DNA from: Candidatus Kaiserbacteria bacterium
GTDB lineage: Bacteria; Patescibacteriota; Minisyncoccia; Phycocordibacterales; JABAAK01
NCBI GenBank assembly: GCA_028820405.1
Contig: JAPPJI010000021.1
Location: 2,770 to 66,769 of the forward strand
Direction of reading: 5' to 3'
DNA length: 64,000 nt
This document shows, piece after piece, positions 3,101 through 22,640 of this stretch (positions are counted from its first letter, which is position 1; each line of letters begins with the position of its first letter). The translations under genes were made by a program, and so were the position numbers. The notes below the pieces were generated by a model. It was given only the letters and a program-made list of their open reading frames with translations. It had not been told where the DNA came from and did not search any database.

Positions 3101-3825
3101 ACCGTCTGCTTTGAAATCATAATATCATCAAACTGTCGATCCTGATGTGCCTGCAGGAGGTTCTTTTTGATCAATTCAAGTACGGCGAGGAATGAGACAA
3201 TACTCTCCGCCTTATCCTTCATTGCCATTGAACGAAACGATACCGACACCCGGTCTGACACTGCGGAGAGTACTTTGTCGATCACCTCTTCGATCATGAC
3301 ACGCTTCTCCACGTGTTTTTTCGGTATCTCCTGCAAAAACACCATGTGCCGTACGACTGCCCGTGCGTGGGCGTGGAGCCGCTTTGCACTGCAAGAGAGG
3401 TCCGGAGAAAATGAGACCTCCCGCTCACTCTTGTACACCTGAACGGTATACATCTGCCGTCGCCACGAATGCAATTTCGGCACGACGTGCTCTCGGATGT
3501 ACTCAAACAGTCTCACCCGATCCTCAAGCTGCCGTACATCAACTTCCTCTTCCTCAGTGTATTCGAGCATATCCAGCAGTGATTTCGACTTGATGAGGAT
3601 AAGGATTGAGGCAACGTGCATGAAATGTGCAATTTCCTCTGCCGTCACCGCATCCCCCTGCTTTGTGTGGCGGAGGTAGTCAGCGGTTACCTTTGCAAGT
3701 GACACGGTATTGATCTGCAGTTTCCGCTTGGTGATGAGCTGGTAGAGGAGGTCAATGGGTCCTTCAAACGATTCAACTGACACAACGTACTCTTTCGCAC
3801 TATTCATCATACAGCTTGACGTCAA
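3097..3825 (-). CDS. scpA: segregation and condensation protein A (kleisin)
   Basis: 242 aa. FEGPIDLLYQLI motif near the N-terminus. The scpA-scpB pair overlaps by 4 nt. Confidence 0.8.
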   Translation of the reverse strand: MTSSCMMNSAKEYVVSVESFEGPIDLLYQLITKRKLQINTVSLAKVTADYLRHTKQGDAVTAEEIAHFMHVASILILIKSKSLLDMLEYTEEEEVDVRQLEDRVRLFEYIREHVVPKLHSWRRQMYTVQVYKSEREVSFSPDLSCSAKRLHAHARAVVRHMVFLQEIPKKHVEKRVMIEEVIDKVLSAVSDRVSVSFRSMAMKDKAESIVSFLAVLELIKKNLLQAHQDRQFDDIMISKQTV

Positions 3826-5164
3826 TTCTGTTTCTATCCCGCGGGAACATAGATGCCTCTTTTGCGTTCTGCAGTCCGCAGAGTTTCGCCGTCAGCCGCT
3901 CAAGCCCCATTCCCATACCGCCGTGCGGCGGCATACCGTACCGAAACGCCTGGAGGTAGAAGGAGAACACGGTCTCAGGGTCGGCAATGCCGGTCTTTTT
4001 CGTGATCTTCTCAATAAGTGTGCTGTAGTCGTGGATACGCTGTCCGCCGGTGCTGATCTCAATCCCCCGGAACAGGAGATCAAATCCTTTGGTATATCCC
4101 GGATCATCTGCATCATCGTAGGTGTACATCGGTCGGGTTTCTGTCGGATAGTGGGTGATGAAAATGAAATCAGATCCCGTCTCTTTCTGTGCGTGCTCGC
4201 AGAGCACCCGCTCATGTTCCGGTGCAAGATCTTTCTCCCCTTCACACGATATGCCGTACTTCTCGGACAACAGGACCTGTGCCTCCGTCAGCTTCATGCT
4301 CGGAAACGGTGTCTCCGGAACGATCGGCAACGATGCCTCCAGCACTGTCAGATGGTTCTTGCACCGATCCGCAACCTGCCGCACGATGTGCCGGACACAT
4401 CCTTCAAGCATCGCCTGCACATCAGTGTGATCGGTAATGTACCCCATCTCAAAGTCCATGCTGGTGTACTCGTTGAGGTGACGGGACGTGCTGTGCTTCT
4501 CTGCACGAAAGACGTTTCCGACAGAAAACACCCGTTCAAACGCACCGACGAGAATCTGCTTGTATAGCTGCGGACTTGTCGCAAGTGATGCCCGCTTGTC
4601 AAAGTAATCAACACCGAATACCTCGGCACCGCCTTCTGCGTCACCTCCGACGATAGCCGGTGCCTGAAACTCCATGAACCCTTCCCCGGAGAGGTACTCA
4701 CGAAATGCCTGTGCAACCGACATCTGCACGCGAAAAACTGCCTGTTCACGACTTCTTCGCAGAGTCAGGGGACGATAGTCAAAGAGGGTATCGATATTGA
4801 TGTCCGCATCGCGATCAAACGGAAGGGTTTGTGCTGCTGCTGATTGAGAGAAGGAGGAGACGAGAATCTCAAGAGCACCGTTGTCCCCGTCAGACCGGTT
4901 TTTCTCAGAACGATCCTGCACCGCCCCGGTCACCATGAGAATACTCTCCGGCGTCAGCTTTTGGGCTTCAGCAAATTGCGGGTGATCCCCCTTCAGGACA
5001 CACTGCACTGATCCGGTCCTGTCGGCAAGGTCAATAAAAAGCACCTTGCCGTGGTCCCGGACAACGAGCACTTTCCCCCATACGGTCACTTCCGACCCAT
5101 TGTGCTCCCGCACCTGCCGCAACAGACATCGCTCCATATGGGCGCAGTATATCACACCGAACAC
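3800..5164 (-). CDS. aspS: aspartate--tRNA ligase, archaeal/non-discriminating type (class IIb). AsnRS cannot be fully excluded.
   Basis: 454 aa. N-terminal OB fold, FRAE...SRHLNEYT (motif 2), GGQRIH and GMPPHGGMGMGLERL (motif 3). The length fits archaeal-type AspRS. GatB is in the same window. The start may be the internal Met at 5137. Confidence 0.75.
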   Translation of the reverse strand: MFGVIYCAHMERCLLRQVREHNGSEVTVWGKVLVVRDHGKVLFIDLADRTGSVQCVLKGDHPQFAEAQKLTPESILMVTGAVQDRSEKNRSDGDNGALEILVSSFSQSAAAQTLPFDRDADINIDTLFDYRPLTLRRSREQAVFRVQMSVAQAFREYLSGEGFMEFQAPAIVGGDAEGGAEVFGVDYFDKRASLATSPQLYKQILVGAFERVFSVGNVFRAEKHSTSRHLNEYTSMDFEMGYITDHTDVQAMLEGCVRHIVRQVADRCKNHLTVLEASLPIVPETPFPSMKLTEAQVLLSEKYGISCEGEKDLAPEHERVLCEHAQKETGSDFIFITHYPTETRPMYTYDDADDPGYTKGFDLLFRGIEISTGGQRIHDYSTLIEKITKKTGIADPETVFSFYLQAFRYGMPPHGGMGMGLERLTAKLCGLQNAKEASMFPRDRNRIDVKLYDE

Positions 5165-5224
5165 TCACCGCTGTCAATGCCTGAGAACGTACCGAAAACA
5201 TCGCAACCCTGTATACTGCACAGA

Positions 5225-5821
5225 ATGGATAACCGTGTCACACTACTGGAAGATGAAATTGTCACCCGGGTACAAACGGCCCGATATATGCTCGAAAAAT
5301 TGGGAAAGCCGTGTGATTCACTGAAACTCATCAAGCTTATTGCCCTTGCTGATATCTACAAGCTACGGCTTGAGGGTGAAACGATAACGGGAGATGATTA
5401 TGTTGCCATGAAAAACGGACCCGCACCGTCCAACACTTCTAACATCATCAGGTTTAACAGTGACTATGTGGACGGCGATACACTGACGTATGCAGGAAAC
5501 TACATAGAAAAGCACAACACCACTATCTCAGCAAAAGAGGGTGACGTAGCATATGACTACCTGTCTGATTTCGATAAGAAGTGTATTGATTACGTGGTAG
5601 AGAAATATGGCAACTTATCTGCATCTGACCTCACAGACGGAAATGGCGGAGAAAACGTACATGCATTTGAGGCATGGAAGAAACATGATATTCGTGCCTT
5701 TGGTCCCGGACAGGTTGCACCGATACACATGGAAGACTTTTTTACAAATGACGGTCCGGTTCAGGTAGATGAGGCTGACATAGAACGGTCAAGAGAGAGA
5801 TACCTTCATGGCAACCTTTGA
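5225..5821 (+). CDS. Panacea-domain (DUF4065, SocA/GepA-like) putative antitoxin
   Basis: The LKLIKLIALADIYKLRLEGETITGDDYVAMKNGPAPS pattern matches the DUF4065 core (KLxKLLYxAD...G.PxxGxxxxAxxxGPV). The start was chosen at the internal ATG at 5225. The ORF track starts at 5051. Confidence 0.7.
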   Translation: MDNRVTLLEDEIVTRVQTARYMLEKLGKPCDSLKLIKLIALADIYKLRLEGETITGDDYVAMKNGPAPSNTSNIIRFNSDYVDGDTLTYAGNYIEKHNTTISAKEGDVAYDYLSDFDKKCIDYVVEKYGNLSASDLTDGNGGENVHAFEAWKKHDIRAFGPGQVAPIHMEDFFTNDGPVQVDEADIERSRERYLHGNL

Positions 5822-6221
5822 AAAACGAGACATCGCATACTATCTCAGCTCCAAAATAAAAAAGAACAAAGAAGGGAGAAAAGAGAGGCATTACCACATT
5901 TTGTGTGCTCAATTTACGGACCGCTCCGGGTATGTCTGGTTGCAGATTATCGGAACGAGCAAGGAGATAGAAAATAACAATGAAAATGTTATTGTCATTG
6001 AACCGTCTATGTGTAACGCATTCACCAAAAGAACACGGTTCAACTGTGACTATGTTTATGCAATCCAAGAAGAGGAGTTGCAAGGTGCGAGCATACGAGG
6101 TAGGGTGCCAGAAAATGTATTTGAAACCCTAAAACAGGCGATCGGGAGATCGAACAAAGTGAAGCCGATTTACAAAAAAAGGATGAACATAGTGTGCCAT
6201 GGGCACAGTACATCACGATAA
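5808..6221 (+). CDS. candidate toxin partner of the Panacea antitoxin (137 aa). Weak MazF/PemK-like pattern.
   Basis: It overlaps the upstream Panacea gene by 14 nt in a toxin-downstream arrangement. The pattern HILCAQFTDRSG...VIVIEPSM...CDYVYAIQEEEL loosely resembles the MazF/CcdB SH3-barrel layout. Inference only. Confidence 0.4.
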   Translation: MATFEKRDIAYYLSSKIKKNKEGRKERHYHILCAQFTDRSGYVWLQIIGTSKEIENNNENVIVIEPSMCNAFTKRTRFNCDYVYAIQEEELQGASIRGRVPENVFETLKQAIGRSNKVKPIYKKRMNIVCHGHSTSR

Positions 6222-6280
6222 GCATTCACTATCACCCATCGTTTATGCCAAGAGAAAGTACTCAATGCTTCATCCGGGTA

Positions 6281-7270
6281 CTACGACACCAGTCCGAGCA
6301 ATCGTTTTGCCTCATGCAATCGGTCAGAAAAAAGGGTATTCAGGGTATCACGATTCTTTTCCAGAATACGGTCAACATACTCCCCGTCGCCCTCTGTTTT
6401 CTGATATTGCTCACGTGCTTTTGCAAAGTACGCAAGATATGCATCTGCAAGCTGATCCTTCAATTCTTTATACGTCACACCCCCAGAGCGACATTGGTCT
6501 TCCCGTGCGAGGTACTCTTTTTCTGAGAGCATAAGTTTGAGGTACGTGCAAATAAGACAGGTGGCAGGATCTATCGGCTCACCGGCCGGTGTTGAGTCAG
6601 TTTTAATAGATTGTATCTGCTGCCGAATCACCTCCTCACTGCCAAAAATCGGAATAGTGTTTCGATATGACTTACTCATCTTTTCGCCGTCAATCCCCGG
6701 AACAGTCATTTGATCCTCTGCACGTTCTTCAGGTTCCGTAAAATAATCGGTGCCGGTCAGCCGATGAAATCTCCTCGCAAACTCTCGTGTAATCTCAATA
6801 TGCTGCACCTGGTCTTTGCCGACCGGAACAACAGCGGCGTCAGGAAGCAGAATATCTGCGGCCATAAGAGCTGGGTAGAGGAACGTGCCGACTGACGGTT
6901 CACTTCCCTTTTGCACTGCATCTTTGTATGCATGACCAATGGTTAAAAACGGCATCTTCACCATACAGGCGAATATCCATGCAAGCTCGGTAATCTGAGG
7001 AAAGTCAGATTGTCGATAGATCATGACACGATTAGGATCAATGCCCAGAGCCGTAAACGATCGGACAAACGTGGAAAACAGCTGTTCCTGCTCGTCTCTG
7101 CGATGTACCTCACGGTCACTGAGCCCGGTCAACGCATGAAGGTCTGCAACGAAAAGAAACACCTCTTCCCCACCTTCTTGCATAGCAACAATCTGTTGAA
7201 TTGCACCAAAATAGTTGCCGAGATGCAATTCGCCGGTCGGTTTCAGTCCTGTGAGAATCCGCTTTCCCAT
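6281..7270 (-). CDS. trpS: tryptophan--tRNA ligase
   Basis: HIGH-like TGELHLGNY and KMSKS motifs. The start is set at the internal ATG (MGKRILTG) at 7270. The ORF track extends 50 codons upstream. Confidence 0.9.
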   Translation of the reverse strand: MGKRILTGLKPTGELHLGNYFGAIQQIVAMQEGGEEVFLFVADLHALTGLSDREVHRRDEQEQLFSTFVRSFTALGIDPNRVMIYRQSDFPQITELAWIFACMVKMPFLTIGHAYKDAVQKGSEPSVGTFLYPALMAADILLPDAAVVPVGKDQVQHIEITREFARRFHRLTGTDYFTEPEERAEDQMTVPGIDGEKMSKSYRNTIPIFGSEEVIRQQIQSIKTDSTPAGEPIDPATCLICTYLKLMLSEKEYLAREDQCRSGGVTYKELKDQLADAYLAYFAKAREQYQKTEGDGEYVDRILEKNRDTLNTLFSDRLHEAKRLLGLVS

Positions 7271-11868: not shown

Positions 11869-14220
11869 CTACTGGCTTGTTCCCGCATCCCCACTCGGGT
11901 TGGTAGACATTTGCTCCTGAATCTGGTTTGTTATTTCTGCAATCTGTTGCTCGAGAGCCGCAAGATCAGCTTGCGTATCCTCTGCCGCAACAACAAATGG
12001 TGCAAGGAAGGTGGTGGTGTCAGTCTCACTGTCAATGTAGACAATTACCTCACCCGTCACCTCTTCCCCTCGTGCTTCCTGGAACCTTCGAACCGCAGCG
12101 TCGGTCGCATCACCAAAGATATTCGTTTCATTTCCTGGAGATCCGGGACCTTCACTCGCAACGAGGAAGTCACCGCCCTGACTGTTGAGGAATCGCTGCA
12201 GGTCTCGCACCGGCTCCATAACAACACCTTTTCGCAAGGTAACCGGGTCACCAGTCGGTGTTGCTAAGACGACTACATCTTGATCTGGGGTGCTGTCCTC
12301 CTCTTCAACTGCTGCTGTATCGTCTTGCACCGGCTCTTCAACGATAAGTTGCGGTGCTGTCGGCTTCGTTGGGTCAACAACCGGCTCACTGCTGCCTGCG
12401 TCTTCTTGATCAACGGGCTGGCTGACAACATCACTGTCCTCGCTATCAGAAACTACCAATTCCGGAGCTGTTGGTTTCACGTCTTCGCTATTCTGGTCAA
12501 CACTTGACTCATCAGGAGTTTCTGAATCTCCGTCAGCCACAGGAATAACAATGGAACTTGCCTGGTCATCAGACGGAAGTTCCGGTGCCTGAATCCGCAG
12601 TACGTCTTCTACCTCACTTTCAATGGTGAAGTCCTTAATCGCAACAGGGTCTCCGCTGTTGATACTAAACGTACAGTCTTCGTAAACTCCGTCATCAAGT
12701 TTTGCCGTTCGTACCTCATGTTTCTCTGATACTGACAACTGGTCTCCGTCTCTCTTGACGACAAACTGACCGCTGCTCAGGAGGCGGTCATTGAAGTGCT
12801 TACACATGCCCGCACCGCCGATGGTAATCGTCGCGATACTCTCTGTCTCATCCCCTGAGAACCAGTGATCAACATCAATAGTAAATGACACCCGTCGCTT
12901 TCGTTCTTCGACAGAAACTTGCTCTATCGGATTACTCAGCAAAACTCCTTCCGGACTGTCAACCGTGAATGTCGGAATATCATGCACTTCTGAAACAGCA
13001 CCTGTGTCATCACGAAGAGCAATACTGCAGTCATAGGAACCGTTGTTCAGCGACAACGCAATGGTAACCGGTCCTGCCGCCACAACCTGGTCTTCAATGG
13101 CACAGCCATCACCGCTCATGGTAAGTATGCCGGGTACGCTTGCGGTAACGGTGTATGAAGGATACTGGTAGGTCACCCCTTCTCCAGACTCCTTGGTGAG
13201 AGATCCTTCGGTGAGCAGCGGCTGTGGTGCAGCTGTCACCACGCCGTCGACAACAGGACCTGTTTCCTCAGCAGCACCCTCCCCTGCCACAGCAGTACTT
13301 ACTGGATCTTCTTGTACAGCAATCGGTGCATCGCTTGCAACAGGAGTGCTGTCATCCTGAACGTCTGTTTCCTCTTCAACGGGACTCGCCTGTCCTTCCG
13401 GTACCACTACCGAATCTTCAACCGGTGCCGTTGGCGTGTCCTCCACAACAGGAACACTCTCATCCTGAGTATCCTCTGCTACCCCTTCAACATCTGGTGT
13501 CACCACTGGTTCAGATGCTACCCCCTCTTCAACAGGCACGACCGGAGTATCGCTCGTAACGGGAGCATCTTCACCTTGTGTGTCTGTTTCTTCTACGACA
13601 GCAGGGATTTCTGTGTCTACGACTGGTGCTGGTGGTGTGTCACTCACATCAGAAGCAGTGTCATCTTCAACTGGCGCGACAGGATCTGGCGTCTCTTCCG
13701 GTGCTGCTACCGGCTCCCCATCTACTGGTGCAGTCACGGGTACCTGCTCTTGTGCTTGCGGATCAGAGATCTGAGCAGCGTGTGTAACCTGCGTAAGTGA
13801 TCCTGATCCAAGCGAGTTTCCGCTCGTGTCAACAATGTCAGTACCGTCACCCGGTGCAGTGTAGGAAATGGTTGTTGCAACACCTTCAGGGAGCGGCTGC
13901 GAGAGCAGCAGTGTCACCGTCTGAGCATGAACAATAACGTGGTTCACCGCAAGACCTTCCTGGTCAGTAGCAAATCCGCCATCCCCGTCAATGTTTCTTG
14001 GGATGAGGGCTTCACTAACGGTAAGCGTAATGATCGATCCGCTCGGATCAACAGCACTGTCGGTAACGGTTAGTCCCACTACTTCCGTCTCCGTTGGGGC
14101 AGGTTGTCCTGCTACGTCCTGTTGCTGTGCACCAACGGTTGCGGGGAAAAGAAATAATAGGGCGATAAGTGCTGGGACAATACCAACACGTGCATATAAC
14201 TGCTTCATATAATTGAACAT
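11869..14220 (-). CDS. secreted, highly acidic Thr/Val/Pro/Glu/Asp-rich low-complexity protein with a C-terminal peptidoglycan-binding (PG_binding_1-like) domain
   Basis: Signal peptide (LIALLFLFPATVGAQQ). About 400 aa of acidic PV/ET/DT low complexity. The C-terminal LRKGVVMEPVRDLQRFLNSQG...GPGSPGNETNIFGDATDAAVRRFQ matches the PG-binding repeat (LxxGxxGxxVxxLQxxL...DGxFGxxTxxAVxxFQ). Confidence 0.7.
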   Translation of the reverse strand: MFNYMKQLYARVGIVPALIALLFLFPATVGAQQQDVAGQPAPTETEVVGLTVTDSAVDPSGSIITLTVSEALIPRNIDGDGGFATDQEGLAVNHVIVHAQTVTLLLSQPLPEGVATTISYTAPGDGTDIVDTSGNSLGSGSLTQVTHAAQISDPQAQEQVPVTAPVDGEPVAAPEETPDPVAPVEDDTASDVSDTPPAPVVDTEIPAVVEETDTQGEDAPVTSDTPVVPVEEGVASEPVVTPDVEGVAEDTQDESVPVVEDTPTAPVEDSVVVPEGQASPVEEETDVQDDSTPVASDAPIAVQEDPVSTAVAGEGAAEETGPVVDGVVTAAPQPLLTEGSLTKESGEGVTYQYPSYTVTASVPGILTMSGDGCAIEDQVVAAGPVTIALSLNNGSYDCSIALRDDTGAVSEVHDIPTFTVDSPEGVLLSNPIEQVSVEERKRRVSFTIDVDHWFSGDETESIATITIGGAGMCKHFNDRLLSSGQFVVKRDGDQLSVSEKHEVRTAKLDDGVYEDCTFSINSGDPVAIKDFTIESEVEDVLRIQAPELPSDDQASSIVIPVADGDSETPDESSVDQNSEDVKPTAPELVVSDSEDSDVVSQPVDQEDAGSSEPVVDPTKPTAPQLIVEEPVQDDTAAVEEEDSTPDQDVVVLATPTGDPVTLRKGVVMEPVRDLQRFLNSQGGDFLVASEGPGSPGNETNIFGDATDAAVRRFQEARGEEVTGEVIVYIDSETDTTTFLAPFVVAAEDTQADLAALEQQIAEITNQIQEQMSTNPSGDAGTSQ

Positions 14221-18897: not shown

Positions 18898-18962
18898 TCA
18901 AGAGATATATCCTGTCATATGTGCACTTTGTGGATAGTGTGGAAAACCTCAGACCTGCTCCC

Positions 18963-18974
18963 CTCACCCCCTAA
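18963..18974. repeat. left copy of a ~12-bp imperfect direct repeat (CTCACCCCCTAA) flanking the AT-rich island
   Basis: Seen in the sequence. The right copy CTCACCCCCCTA lies at 22641-22652. Each copy overlaps the stop codon of a minus-strand gene (KAP NTPase, rpoC). Confidence 0.3.
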
Positions 18975-20346
18975 CACTTGGTATGCTATCACCATGAAAT
19001 TCCTCAATGTATAAAAGCAATACATCCTTGAATGTTTTTAGAACCTCTCCTTCGTGTATTACATCACCTCCCTTTATGCTTAATTCTCCTTCACGAACGA
19101 CCAACCCTTCAATGTGCCTACCTTTAAGCAAACGTGGCAGAAATGGTGCCTTGTGGGACAGGTTTACTGCTGACACAATGAACTTACAGTGGTCTCTCAA
19201 ACCATCAAACATATCACTCTGACCATATTTATTATCAACTATGGGTTCACAATCGTTAGAAAGAGATTGCTTTATAGCGTCAACTAAAGCTTTCTTTGAT
19301 CCGACAGTCTTTATTAAAAAAGACACAGTTCTTTTCATGGGTCTTCCGTATTCCCTCTCTTCAATCATAGAGAACCCTGAACTATTTCTTTTTTGTGAAT
19401 ACTGTAGCGTCCCCAACCCATTGAGGACCTGTCGCAAGTTTATGATATTTTTTCTGAAGAAGTTTTTCAAAAGGAATAATGACAACCAGACACTTATATA
19501 TTGACCTGTTTTATCTGTCACTTGTTTATTTGGTTGTGGGCCAAAAACGGTACCCATATATTCAGCAATAATACCTTTCGGGTCATACTCAAAAACTTCC
19601 TTGCTGTAAAATTTATCAAGATACCCTTGTGAATCTGTGCCAGCACCATATTTGTGGTGAAAGATTGATCGTAGGTTATTATAGTCCGCTACAAAAATTA
19701 CGTGATCAAAACCAAGCCTTTTAGCAACTGTCTTCTCCTCATCCTCGCCAACAAATAAAGAAAATACATTAAATAGTCTGAAAATATGTTCGGGATCAAG
19801 TCGATCCATATCATCAATAACCAAAACTTTCTTCTTTTCTTTCCCCGCAACTTTGCACAACATTTTTCTGATTTTTTCTTCAGTAATCGTCCCAAAAGAT
19901 TCTTTTATCTCTTCAATCGCAGCAACTATGAAATTCGCAATTGGATTGACCCTCCCCAGCAAAGATGCGGTTTTCCACCCTATCTTTACCAACTTTTTCA
20001 TTTTTGATTTTTCCTTGTGCCCTGACAAGGGTCCTTTTTCTCCACCTTGTTCCATAATAGATATCATCAAGTCTTCCTTCATGGTTTCTATCAGTACCTC
20101 ACTTCCCACTATTTGATAAGCTGTGGGGCGAAGACGTACCCAAAAGTAATATTCCTCATACTGCTTAAAAAACCTCTCGATAAAAAACGTCTTCCCTATA
20201 CCAAATTTGCCAGAAAACAAGATTCTACTGTTTCTCAACATCTCCAAATGATGTTTAAAATGATCAAACAAGGGATCTATCGGTATTATCATACCGCTTC
20301 CAACCAACCCGTCTTGGGATTCTTTAGGATCTTTTGTTACATCCAT
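18964..20346 (-). CDS. KAP-family P-loop NTPase
   Basis: Walker A SGKFGIGKTFF. The Walker B context KVLVIDDMDRLDPEHIF matches the KAP signature (hhhhIDDLDRxxP). AT-rich codon usage unlike the flanking genes. Confidence 0.7.
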   Translation of the reverse strand: MDVTKDPKESQDGLVGSGMIIPIDPLFDHFKHHLEMLRNSRILFSGKFGIGKTFFIERFFKQYEEYYFWVRLRPTAYQIVGSEVLIETMKEDLMISIMEQGGEKGPLSGHKEKSKMKKLVKIGWKTASLLGRVNPIANFIVAAIEEIKESFGTITEEKIRKMLCKVAGKEKKKVLVIDDMDRLDPEHIFRLFNVFSLFVGEDEEKTVAKRLGFDHVIFVADYNNLRSIFHHKYGAGTDSQGYLDKFYSKEVFEYDPKGIIAEYMGTVFGPQPNKQVTDKTGQYISVWLSLFLLKNFFRKNIINLRQVLNGLGTLQYSQKRNSSGFSMIEEREYGRPMKRTVSFLIKTVGSKKALVDAIKQSLSNDCEPIVDNKYGQSDMFDGLRDHCKFIVSAVNLSHKAPFLPRLLKGRHIEGLVVREGELSIKGGDVIHEGEVLKTFKDVLLLYIEEFHGDSIPSVRG

Positions 20347-20461
20347 ACACTAATCACATGATAGTGTAATAACGATATGGAGCACAAGTCAAGACATTGA
20401 CCGACAGTTTCCGATCACTATTCATTTGTAGCCGTGCAAGGAGGTTATACTGAATATAAGC

Positions 20462-21541
20462 ATGGTCACCAAAAGCCTAAACAAGGGATTGCATACTGCA
20501 AAGAGAGAAAAGAAAGATGAGTTCTATACCCAACTTACTGATATTGAAAAAGAGCTGAAACATTACAAAGATCAGTTTCGTAATAAAGTTGTGTATTGTA
20601 ATTGCGATGACCCTTATGAAAGTAATTTTTTTAAATATTTTTCTCTCAGTTTCAACCACTTGGGGTTAAAAAAGCTTATCACCACGAGTTACAAACCATC
20701 ACCAATTACTGGCAAACAATTGCCTTTGGTTGAAATTGAAGGATTAAAGCCAGAAGGCAAAGAACCTTTCAAACTTGAGATCAATGAAGTTTTAGACAAT
20801 AACAAAGATGGTGCTGTTGACTTAACAGATGTTGAGTGGCTATTGAAGAATGATGCGAACACCGCCACACCACTTGATAGTGACGGTGATTTTCGCAGTG
20901 AAGAATGTGTAGAATTTCTCAAAGAAGCAGATGTTGTTGTAACGAACCCTCCTTTTTCACTTTTTCGCGAGTACCTTGCTCAGTTGATGGAGTATGATAA
21001 GAAGTTTTTAATCATTGGAAACATCAACGCCATCACGTACAAAGAGACATTTCCGTTAATCCAGAAAAACAAGGTATGGCTTGGAGTAAGCATCCATAGC
21101 GGAGATCGTGAATTCAGAGTTCCTGACCACTACCCTCTAGAGGCTGCCGGGTATCGTGTTGATGACGAAGGCAACAAATACATTCGCATAAAAGGTGTTC
21201 GATGGTTTACAAATCTTGACACAGAAAAGCGGCACGAAAGTCTTGTTTTGTACAAGAAGTACACCCCCGAGGAGTTTCCAAAATATGACAACTATGATGC
21301 CATAAATGTAAATAAAACCTCTGACATCCCGATGGATTATGCTGATGCAATGGGTGTGCCGATCACTTTTTTGGACAAACACAACCCCGATCAATTTGAG
21401 ATAGTAAATTCAAATAATGTAAGGTTAAGCGAAAAAGTTCCGACCAAAGACTCGGGACTTATCAAAGACAAAGAAAGTGCAATAAACGGCAAGCCGACCT
21501 ATGTTCGAGTTGTCATAAAAAACAAGGAGGTGACAAAATAA
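20462..21541 (+). CDS. N6-adenine DNA methyltransferase, M.EcoRI-like (EcoRI_methylase family)
   Basis: The SDEFYTQ N-terminal motif, VVYCNCDDP, FFKYFSLxFxxLGLKKLI, VVTNPPFSLFREYL (NPPF motif IV), DKKFLIIGNINAITYKE and YPKYDNYDAINVNKTxDIP are all as recalled for M.EcoRI. AT-rich. Confidence 0.8.
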   Translation: MVTKSLNKGLHTAKREKKDEFYTQLTDIEKELKHYKDQFRNKVVYCNCDDPYESNFFKYFSLSFNHLGLKKLITTSYKPSPITGKQLPLVEIEGLKPEGKEPFKLEINEVLDNNKDGAVDLTDVEWLLKNDANTATPLDSDGDFRSEECVEFLKEADVVVTNPPFSLFREYLAQLMEYDKKFLIIGNINAITYKETFPLIQKNKVWLGVSIHSGDREFRVPDHYPLEAAGYRVDDEGNKYIRIKGVRWFTNLDTEKRHESLVLYKKYTPEEFPKYDNYDAINVNKTSDIPMDYADAMGVPITFLDKHNPDQFEIVNSNNVRLSEKVPTKDSGLIKDKESAINGKPTYVRVVIKNKEVTK

Positions 21542-21542
21542 C

Positions 21543-22637
21543 ATGAAAATAGAACTCAAAAGAATTCCTGTTCGTGAGGCAGTTAATGGCTACAAAGATA
21601 ATGCCGAGGAGGGTGTTACGGCATACGGCGGCAAACTTGATGTTCGCCCAAAATACCAACGCGAGTTTGTTTATGACGACAGACAGCGTGATGCGGTAAT
21701 TGAAACAATCAAACAAGATTTTCCGCTTAATGTGATGTACTGGATGACAAAAGATGACGGAATTAATTACGAAATGATTGACGGTCAACAGCGAACTATC
21801 AGTATTGGTCAGTATGTGAGTGGTAATTTTGCACTTGCTAATCGTTTTTTCTATAACCTCACAAAAGAAGAGCAGAATCAGATCCTTGACTACGAGCTCA
21901 TGATTTACTTCTGCGAAGGAACAGACAAAGAACGTTTAGATTGGTTTAAGGTTATCAACATCGCCGGTGAAAAACTGACCGATCAAGAAATACGGAATGC
22001 GGTATATACCGGACCATGGCTTTCTGATGCAAAATTGAAATTCAGTAAAACGAGCTGTGCAGCGTACAAATTAGCAAACGACGGAGGAACACTTTTGAAC
22101 GGTGAATTAAACAGACAGCACTACCTAGAAACCGCCCTCTCTTGGATTAATCATGGAGAAATAGATGGTTACATGGCAAAGCATCAGCACGAACCAAACG
22201 CAAACAACCTATGGAGTTACTTTCAAGATGTGATCATGTGGGTTCGCAAGACATTCCCAAAATATCGAAAAGAAATGAGAGGTGTGAATTGGGGCGGGCT
22301 GCACAACGAATCTAAAGACAAAAAATTGGATGCTGAGAAACTAGAAACTGAGGTTGCTCAATTAATGCAAGATGAAGATGTAACAAGAAGGTCGGGCATT
22401 TACCCTTATGTCCTCACAAGAGATGAGAGACACCTCCAAATACGTGCGTTTACCGACAACATGAAACGAGAAGTATATGAGGAACAAGAGGGAATCTGCA
22501 AAAAATGTGAAGAACAATTCCCATTCGAAGAAATGGAGGCTGACCACATTAAGCCGTGGCACGAAGGCGGCAAAACGACCTCAGAAAATTGTCAGATGTT
22601 GTGCAAGGATTGCAATCGGAGAAAATCCGGAAAATAA
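21543..22637 (+). CDS. DUF262 (ParB/Srx-like, DGQQR motif) + C-terminal HNH nuclease fusion (COG1479/GmrSD-related)
   Basis: YQREFVY and IDGQQRTISIGQY DUF262 signatures. C-terminal CKKCEEQ...ADHIKPWHEGGKTTSENCQMLCKDCNRRK is a canonical zinc-finger HNH. The start codon lies 1 nt after the MTase stop. Confidence 0.8.
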   Translation: MKIELKRIPVREAVNGYKDNAEEGVTAYGGKLDVRPKYQREFVYDDRQRDAVIETIKQDFPLNVMYWMTKDDGINYEMIDGQQRTISIGQYVSGNFALANRFFYNLTKEEQNQILDYELMIYFCEGTDKERLDWFKVINIAGEKLTDQEIRNAVYTGPWLSDAKLKFSKTSCAAYKLANDGGTLLNGELNRQHYLETALSWINHGEIDGYMAKHQHEPNANNLWSYFQDVIMWVRKTFPKYRKEMRGVNWGGLHNESKDKKLDAEKLETEVAQLMQDEDVTRRSGIYPYVLTRDERHLQIRAFTDNMKREVYEEQEGICKKCEEQFPFEEMEADHIKPWHEGGKTTSENCQMLCKDCNRRKSGK

Positions 22638-22640
22638 CAA

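Follow-up and report, generated by a model that had tools for sequence, protein, structure and literature searches.

A two-gene cassette, panA-panT, occupies positions 5225 to 6221 of the Candidatus Kaiserbacteria DNA analyzed here, a stretch of 64,000 nucleotides (nt) that is referred to in full as the window. The best explanation for this pair, and one that we consider probable, is that it forms a PanA-PanT (Panacea) type II toxin-antitoxin (TA) module that moves horizontally as a small two-gene cassette, here in the chromosome of a Candidatus Kaiserbacteria bacterium, and whose toxin has a MazF fold and is probably an RNase. The evidence comes from the antitoxin domain of the first gene, from the conservation, mobility, and decay of the pair at other loci, and from the predicted fold of the second gene product. 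The parts of the cassette are as follows.

5225..5821, plus strand: panA (gene 1), 198 amino acids (aa), ATG at 5225 and stop at 5819-5821; Panacea-domain antitoxin candidate
5327..5638, plus strand: Panacea core, PanA residues 35-138, aligned to profile positions 1-104 of 113
5639..5818, plus strand: C-terminal extension of PanA, residues 139-198, outside the Pfam core, with the motifs VHAFxAWxKH, G160, and DFFxNDGPV
5808..6221, plus strand: panT (gene 2), 137 aa, ATG at 5808 and stop at 6219-6221; candidate toxin
5808..5821, plus strand: 14-nt overlap between the end of panA and the start of panT, ATGGCAACCTTTGA

The original prediction had recognized a DUF4065/Panacea core in the first gene and had named the lack of a DUF4065 match as grounds for giving the idea up. 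Such a match is present: PanA is a clear member of PF13274 (SocA_Panacea), with an E value of 5e-17 and 63.3 bits against a gathering score of 25.7. The PF13274 match is precomputed for all PanA orthologs, and an identical 198-aa protein carries the NCBI name 'Panacea domain-containing protein [Candidatus Kaiserbacteria bacterium]'. No other domain, including an extra N-terminal domain, was detected in PanA with Pfam. Because PanA is devoid of an accessory N-terminal domain, the neutralizing part would be either the Panacea core or the C-terminal extension. In this extension 11 residues are invariant among eight orthologs (V145, H146, F148, A150, W151, K153, H154, G160, D171, F172, and F173), and by analogy it is a candidate toxin-binding or neutralizing segment. 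The protein is acidic, with an isoelectric point (pI) of 4.75.

Both open reading frames (ORFs) are genuine genes rather than chance frames, since orthologs exist at 59-70% identity and both are under purifying selection. The proportion of nonsynonymous differences (pN 0.15-0.27) was far below that of synonymous differences (pS 0.60-0.89) in both, and dN/dS was 0.095-0.19 in both wherever dS was unsaturated. The panA start at 5225 is supported because eight orthologous PanA N-termini align there and the DNA upstream diverges.

The cassette had been described as a two-gene plus-strand insert between minus-strand aspS and trpS genes, and both ORFs and the 14-nt overlap were found exactly so. The flanking genes are listed here.

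3800-5164, minus strand: aspS, aspartate--tRNA(Asn) ligase (non-discriminating AspRS); NF003483, 485 bits against a cut-off of 353
6281 to about 7264, minus strand: trpS, tryptophan--tRNA ligase; TIGR00233, 228 bits against 176.75

The GC content of the cassette is 43.5%, compared with 50.3% for the window and 54.5% for aspS, which ranks it among the lowest 5.5% of stretches of the same length and fits a horizontally acquired insert. No further copy of panA or panT was found in the window by tblastn.

Conservation, mobility, and decay of the linked loci

Members of the PanT family were located at 11 loci (the window, L001-L007, L011, L012, and L016). An intact PF13274 PanA of 197-200 aa lies directly upstream of the toxin gene, and overlaps it, at eight of the 11: by 14 nt in the window, L001, L004, L005, L011, and L012, and by 11 nt in L006 and L007. 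Judged by neighborhood conservation across genomes, as done by Kurata et al. (2022, PNAS, PMC8832971), this is a conserved TA-like two-gene arrangement. The neighbors differ at every locus and include genes for pyruvate kinase/TruB, GltX, DnaK-DnaJ, ThyA, ThyX, GatB/RF-1, and EF-Ts/transketolase. Divergence runs in parallel in the two partners (identities of 46-68% for PanA and 29-65% for the toxin), which are also complementary in charge, with PanA at pI 4.6-5.4 and the toxin at pI 9.1-9.6 in seven of eight loci. Taken together, the overlap, linkage, differing neighborhoods, co-divergence, charge, and decay (below) are the signature of a type II TA cassette, and the suggestion that the two genes form a TA-like pair is borne out by a conserved bicistronic module in unrelated neighborhoods.

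Two kinds of decayed locus were found. At L003 the panA gene is internally deleted, with the first ~25 and last ~8 codons left, and the C-terminal 20 residues of the toxin are replaced so that its conserved tail is lost. In another lineage, Candidatus Kaiserbacteria GCA_026713605.1 (L008-L010), there is an orphan PanA, 67% identical to that of the window (L008 3001-3640), followed by a toxin gene deleted to its first ~10 codons (MAMFKRQDVKSF and a stop) and then by pilin-like N_methyl genes. Read from the sequences, these patterns are as expected for a TA pair.

At two further loci, L002 and L016, the same PanA carries a 1-nt frame disruption in a long-read contig, one of them at 5x coverage, and the toxin ORF is intact. 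The result at L002 (3370-4349, P0003) is a truncated PanA and an N-terminally extended toxin; at L016 (3001-3951, P0007, 316 aa) it is an apparent PanA-PanT fusion, in which an alternative frame restores both the PanA C-terminus, ending in DYLYEWL and a stop, and the 14-nt overlap. Since each is a one-base indel in a long-read contig, lying in or close to a homopolymer, both disruptions are probably sequencing errors and not biology. P0007 was rejected as a natural PanA-PanT fusion on account of the 1-nt frame change in a 5x long-read contig.

Two of the loci have further features. L006 holds the toxin gene twice in inverted orientation (2435-2845 on the minus strand and 4001-4411) with identical tblastn statistics. 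No PanA accompanies the second copy, and oppositely oriented Fic genes flank the locus on both sides. The arrangement is either real, as an inverted duplication, or an assembly artifact of the inverted-repeat kind. Directly upstream of the decayed copy at L003, positions 4930-5793 encode another PanA that differs from the first (155 aa; 82 bits to PF13274) and, after a gap of 6 nt, an unrelated 129-aa protein without a Pfam match, which together make a further candidate PanAT pair. The surroundings of L003, with genes for Peptidase_M78+DUF4411, DUF3800, PIN_12, and RadC, look like a TA or defense island.

Some of these copies bear on a different explanation, which we regard as unlikely, namely that the 137-aa protein is not a toxin and is instead a harmless MazF-fold partner of PanA that binds nucleic acid or regulates, or an inactive relic copy. 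The L003 toxin gene persists despite near-complete deletion of PanA, L006 has its second inverted copy without a PanA, and the toxin ORFs of L002 and L016 are intact though their PanA frames are disrupted; moreover, the canonical catalytic arginine of MazF is apparently missing from PanT (see below) and some predicted MazF-like PanTs are non-toxic in Escherichia coli. On the other hand, the conserved C-terminal tail is gone from the L003 copy, as would fit inactivation after loss of the antitoxin, the L002 and L016 indels are probably sequencing errors, and the L006 contig may be an inverted-repeat artifact. The window copy is intact, carries all family-invariant residues, and is under purifying selection. 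Hallmarks of TA systems are present as well: the genes overlap as a bicistron, the partners have complementary charges, and the distribution is patchy and mobile.

A probable sister clade of PanA proteins was also identified. P0021, P0022, and P0029 are 32-34% identical to the window PanA and share the pattern of its C-terminal extension. This clade is abundant in metagenomes, with P0029 found on 222 contigs. At L013-L015 (L013 2501-3541) the gene 12 nt downstream of panA (3101-3541 in L013) encodes a 146-aa protein with no Pfam match, in which the motifs G..QHFGII, AVSSQ, FSKTSxIDC, and SPRVPPRLKK are collinear with the PanT family. Direct comparison lends weak support, with an hhalign E value of 0.003 and probability of 10% over 98 columns, and an E value of 6.6e-4 in a single-target hmmsearch. 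Since the partner gene and the motif order agree, it is plausible that the 146-aa protein is a distant relative that forms a sister clade of the PanT family. In another protein of this clade, P0028 (348 aa), the PanA stop is read through as tryptophan (W), which suggests either that the gene was called with a TGA-recoding table or that the metagenome-assembled genome (MAG) concerned really recodes TGA. Since the W at the stop points to the use of such a table in gene calling, P0028 was rejected as a natural PanA-PanT fusion.

Sequence family, predicted fold, and putative active site of PanT

The second gene had been said to have no obvious family, and the searches agree. PanT has no match at E<=1 in Pfam, PADLOC, NCBIfam, or PHROGs. 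Against all PDB sequences, phmmer and a profile hmmsearch returned chance matches alone (E>0.09), with no MazF among them. The family comprises about a dozen proteins among the billions searched. Among 5.8 billion proteins, one search returned four clusters; six family members came from an exhaustive HMMER profile search that covered 1.84 billion representatives, and a second, word-indexed profile search of the 5.8 billion gave eight. No relatives were found in phage and plasmid records by tblastn, or in IMG/VR and GTDB species representatives by pattern scans. A deposited Candidatus Kaiserbacteria MAG includes the identical 137-aa protein, labeled hypothetical, and wherever a host of the family is named it is Candidatus Kaiserbacteria. 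PanT is basic (pI 9.5, net charge +9). Its conserved residues are H28, H30, T50, S51, E55, F72, K74, T76, R77, E88, G98, S115, and K123, and a basic C-terminal tail, SxKVKPIYKKRM (from S115, with a short helix at 120-125), extends beyond the MazF core.

The original prediction had guessed by eye that PanT has a MazF/CcdB barrel layout and had proposed structure prediction as a check. AlphaFold2 with a 10-sequence family alignment gave a model with a mean predicted local distance difference test score (pLDDT) of 89.3 (86.9-89.3 over five models) and a predicted template modeling score (pTM) of 0.83. The model has the SH3-like barrel with a C-terminal helix that characterizes the MazF/Kid fold, and strong structural scores were obtained against proteins of the MazF/Kid/CcdB fold.

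6kys_A, MazF-mt1: structural score 11.5
8zws_A, MazF-mt3: structural score 11.5
4mzm_A, Staphylococcus aureus MazF: structural score 11.3
1m1f_A, Kid: structural score 10.2
5cca_A, MazF3 (the tenth MazF/Kid chain): structural score 9.0
1vub_A, CcdB: structural score 8.4
4rmo_A, CptN: structural score 8.2

Below CptN the scores fall to 6.6 for generic Tudor/SH3-like barrels, and ToxN and AbiQ score 5.5. In a Foldseek search of the PDB, the top 50 matches were all MazF-family toxin chains, with a probability of 1.00 and identities of 7-16%. The guess thus holds at the level of the fold, with MazF/Kid favored over CcdB, and we have high confidence in the prediction that PanT adopts the MazF/Kid beta-barrel fold.

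Two other kinds of toxin share features with this barrel. The pair could be a PanAT module with a CcdB-like toxin that poisons DNA gyrase or another protein target via the same barrel without cutting RNA. We hold this to be very unlikely, since the top 50 Foldseek matches are all of the MazF family, PanT is as strongly basic as an RNA binder would be, and a conserved Thr/Ser pair probably stands at the topological position of the MazF catalytic threonine. In addition, the 'MGI' tail of the window PanT has N in place of G, in a part of the model that is of low confidence, and PanT does not combine a best structural match to CcdB with the C-terminal residues that contact GyrA. MazF-fold PanTs that have been validated inhibit translation.

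A type III toxin like ToxN, AbiQ, or CptN, neutralized by RNA and with the Panacea gene as a mere neighbor, has next to no likelihood. In type III systems the antitoxin consists of repeats arrayed upstream of the toxin gene, and Tandem Repeats Finder (minimum score 30) found no tandem repeats in 4800-6600, which effectively refutes an RNA antitoxin here. The sequence upstream of panT is a protein-coding gene under purifying selection that overlaps and co-evolves with the toxin gene. PanT is also shorter, at 137 aa compared with 155-168 aa for ToxN, AbiQ, and CptN, and its structural scores against these are below those for MazF.

MazF has its catalytic arginine at the start of strand 2 (R29 in E. 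coli MazF, R25 in Bacillus subtilis MazF) and its catalytic threonine where strand 3 ends (E. coli T52, B. subtilis T48). In the PanT family T50 is conserved in nine of 10 sequences and S51 in all 10, and both are at the end of a predicted strand, 41-50, that corresponds to strand 3. T50 and S51 probably occupy the topological place of MazF T48/T52 in the model and serve in the active site. H28 and H30, in predicted strand 28-38 (strand 2), are near-invariant, and H28, which begins this strand, may stand in for the canonical arginine (R25/R29).

Several results weigh against a TA module with a MazF-type toxin. PanT has no match to PF02452 at E<=1 in Pfam, and an hhalign comparison of the family with an alignment of MazF, Kid, EndoA, and MazF-mt3 gave a probability of 9% with the C-terminal half alone aligned. 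Forced global or greedy alignments of the same sets gave 5-18% with unreliable registers. As a check on the MazF set, whose members were MazF from E. coli, EndoA from B. subtilis, Kid, and MazF-mt3, its profile retrieved the corresponding PDB entries at E values of ~1e-42 to 1e-47, with a residue-by-residue display for the E. coli MazF sequence alone. The assignment of PanT to PemK/MazF (PF02452) at the level of sequence failed on these grounds, with no profile match and hhalign probabilities of 5-18%. Position 27, which precedes strand 28-38, reads R, K, A, S, or P, so that the canonical catalytic arginine is probably not conserved. The catalytic residues were mapped from the register of secondary structure and not from residue-level superposition, and the forced hhalign register differs from this mapping by two residues, at near-zero confidence. 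The L004 toxin is neutral (pI 6.6). When PanA and PanT were modeled as one fused AlphaFold2 chain from a block alignment, pTM was 0.63, one of five models was confident (pLDDT 83 vs 58-65), and there was no interface read-out. Finally, some MazF-like PanTs were non-toxic in E. coli, or toxic without being neutralized (PMC8832971).

Expression signals, proposed mode of action, and other features of the window

Two putative expression signals accompany the genes.

5212..5217, plus strand: -10-like box TATACT, 7 nt upstream of the panA ATG; putative promoter element
5791..5800, plus strand: purine-rich stretch AAGAGAGAGA, resembling a Shine-Dalgarno sequence, within the end of panA and 8-17 nt ahead of the panT ATG; putative ribosome-binding site

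The TATACT box (TATAAT in L006) is found 6-7 nt before the PanA start in seven loci (the window and L001-L006), and the DNA around it is not conserved among them. A consensus promoter scan did not call the box and gave no -35 match, and there is no Shine-Dalgarno sequence between the box and the panA ATG. The closeness of the box to the ATG without a Shine-Dalgarno sequence suggests that the panA-panT mRNA is leaderless, or nearly so, in these Patescibacteria. Equivalent AAAGAG(C/A)G stretches are present at the orthologous junctions, and, as far as sequence can indicate, the purine-rich stretch and the 14-nt overlap suggest that translation of panT is coupled to that of panA.

In the proposed mode of action, panA and panT would be co-transcribed from the TATACT box, with translation coupled through the 14-nt overlap. 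By analogy with PanAT systems that have been validated (PMC8832971, PMC10440598), acidic PanA would bind basic PanT directly and hold it inactive, and the conserved C-terminal extension would probably contribute to neutralization, as C-terminal segments do in MazE and in PanA of the Phd-C type. Residues 151-190 of PanA, most of this extension, had pLDDT values of 82-91 in the fused-chain model. If PanA were degraded, lost, or triggered, as by an infecting phage, PanT would be freed, and free PanT would then act as a MazF-like sequence-specific endoribonuclease, leading to arrest of translation and growth.

Elsewhere in the window, positions 18960-22640 form a low-GC island (37-41% compared with 50% for the window) that, from motifs recognized by eye, looks like a horizontally acquired restriction or defense island. 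It contains the following ORFs, all annotated from motifs by eye.

18964-20346, minus strand: P-loop/KAP-like ORF, 460 aa
20462-21541, plus strand: DNA methyltransferase-like ORF, 359 aa, with an NPPF motif
21543-22637, plus strand: GmrSD-like ORF, 364 aa, with a DUF262-like DGQQR motif and a C-terminal HNH

A 783-aa ORF at 11869-14220 on the minus strand has a signal-peptide-like N-terminus, long acidic low-complexity stretches (P, V, E, D, T), and a C-terminal peptidoglycan-binding-like segment; going by the ORF listing alone, it is probably a surface protein.

Comparison with known systems

The work provides a fold and a likely function for a family now labeled 'hypothetical', and extends the already long list of toxin lineages paired with Panacea antitoxins, in this case by one from Candidatus Kaiserbacteria of the reduced-genome Patescibacteria; these ultra-small episymbiotic bacteria have few recognized defense systems. 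It also illustrates that PanA partners that are orphans by sequence can be classified by structure prediction, as argued by Kurata et al. and by Ernits et al. (2023, PMC10440598).

A bolder version of the explanation, which we find doubtful, is that PanT and the probable 146-aa sister clade, which follows related PanA genes on hundreds of metagenomic contigs, together form a lineage-restricted branch of the MazF superfamily within Patescibacteria/CPR, with the active site rebuilt on H28/H30 and the Thr/Ser pair, a basic tail gained, and a role in abortive-infection defense with PanA as the sensor. If true, the rebuilt active site and basic tail could give a different RNA target or chemistry, and a histidine in place of the MazF arginine would add modestly but usefully to what is known of the catalytic rewiring that the MazF scaffold tolerates.

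Pairs of PanA with MazF/PemK-like toxins are known from the work of Kurata et al. (PMC8832971), in which PemK was among the CDD hits and two toxin clusters, pT5 and pT6, were MazF/EndoA-like by HHpred. The validated pT6 pair is that of Pseudomonas moraviensis (WP_083354365.1/WP_083201923.1), and pT5 is exemplified by Steroidobacter (WP_116809182.1/WP_116809181.1). The toxins of P. moraviensis and Bifidobacterium ruminantium had no CDD hit, were toxic, were neutralized by their cognate PanA, and inhibited protein synthesis (PMC8832971). MazF/PemK is also among the commonest folds in the NetFlax network (PMC10440598).

The pair described here resembles these published MazF-fold PanATs in having a single-domain ('noNTD') PanA first and the toxin next, in A|T order (published distances -4 to +9), and in its chromosomal, patchy distribution. 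Like the P. moraviensis and B. ruminantium PanTs, PanT has no sequence-family match and is recognized as MazF-like by structure-aware methods alone. It differs from the published pairs, as compared by description, in its longer overlap of 14 nt, and also in the conserved 60-aa C-terminal extension of PanA, in the probable replacement of the putative catalytic arginine of PanT, and in that the toxin family, where a host is named, is in Candidatus Kaiserbacteria.

Compared with MazEF and Kis-Kid (PemIK), the antitoxin is of the Panacea type rather than an AbrB/SpoVT or ribbon-helix-helix MazE/Kis. PanT has no PF02452 match, has a conserved HxH instead of the RP motif of the catalytic arginine, and is extended at its C-terminus by an additional basic segment (115-130) that includes a short helix. 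CcdAB of the F plasmid is set apart by a lower structural score than the MazF proteins, by the basic character of PanT, and by a different class of antitoxin. Type III ToxIN, AbiQ, and CptIN differ in that the present locus has no RNA repeats, a protein as the antitoxin candidate, and a smaller toxin.

The antitoxin of SocAB in Caulobacter crescentus has the same Pfam domain as PanA, PF13274 'Antitoxin SocA-like, Panacea domain', and SocA is the founding Panacea antitoxin. SocA is a ClpXP adaptor that promotes degradation of its toxin and not a labile inhibitor; that toxin, SocB, has no relationship to MazF and stops replication through the beta sliding clamp. Pairs of PanA with MazF-fold toxins have already been described and validated, so the present pair represents a new and very small toxin sequence family within a known class of system.

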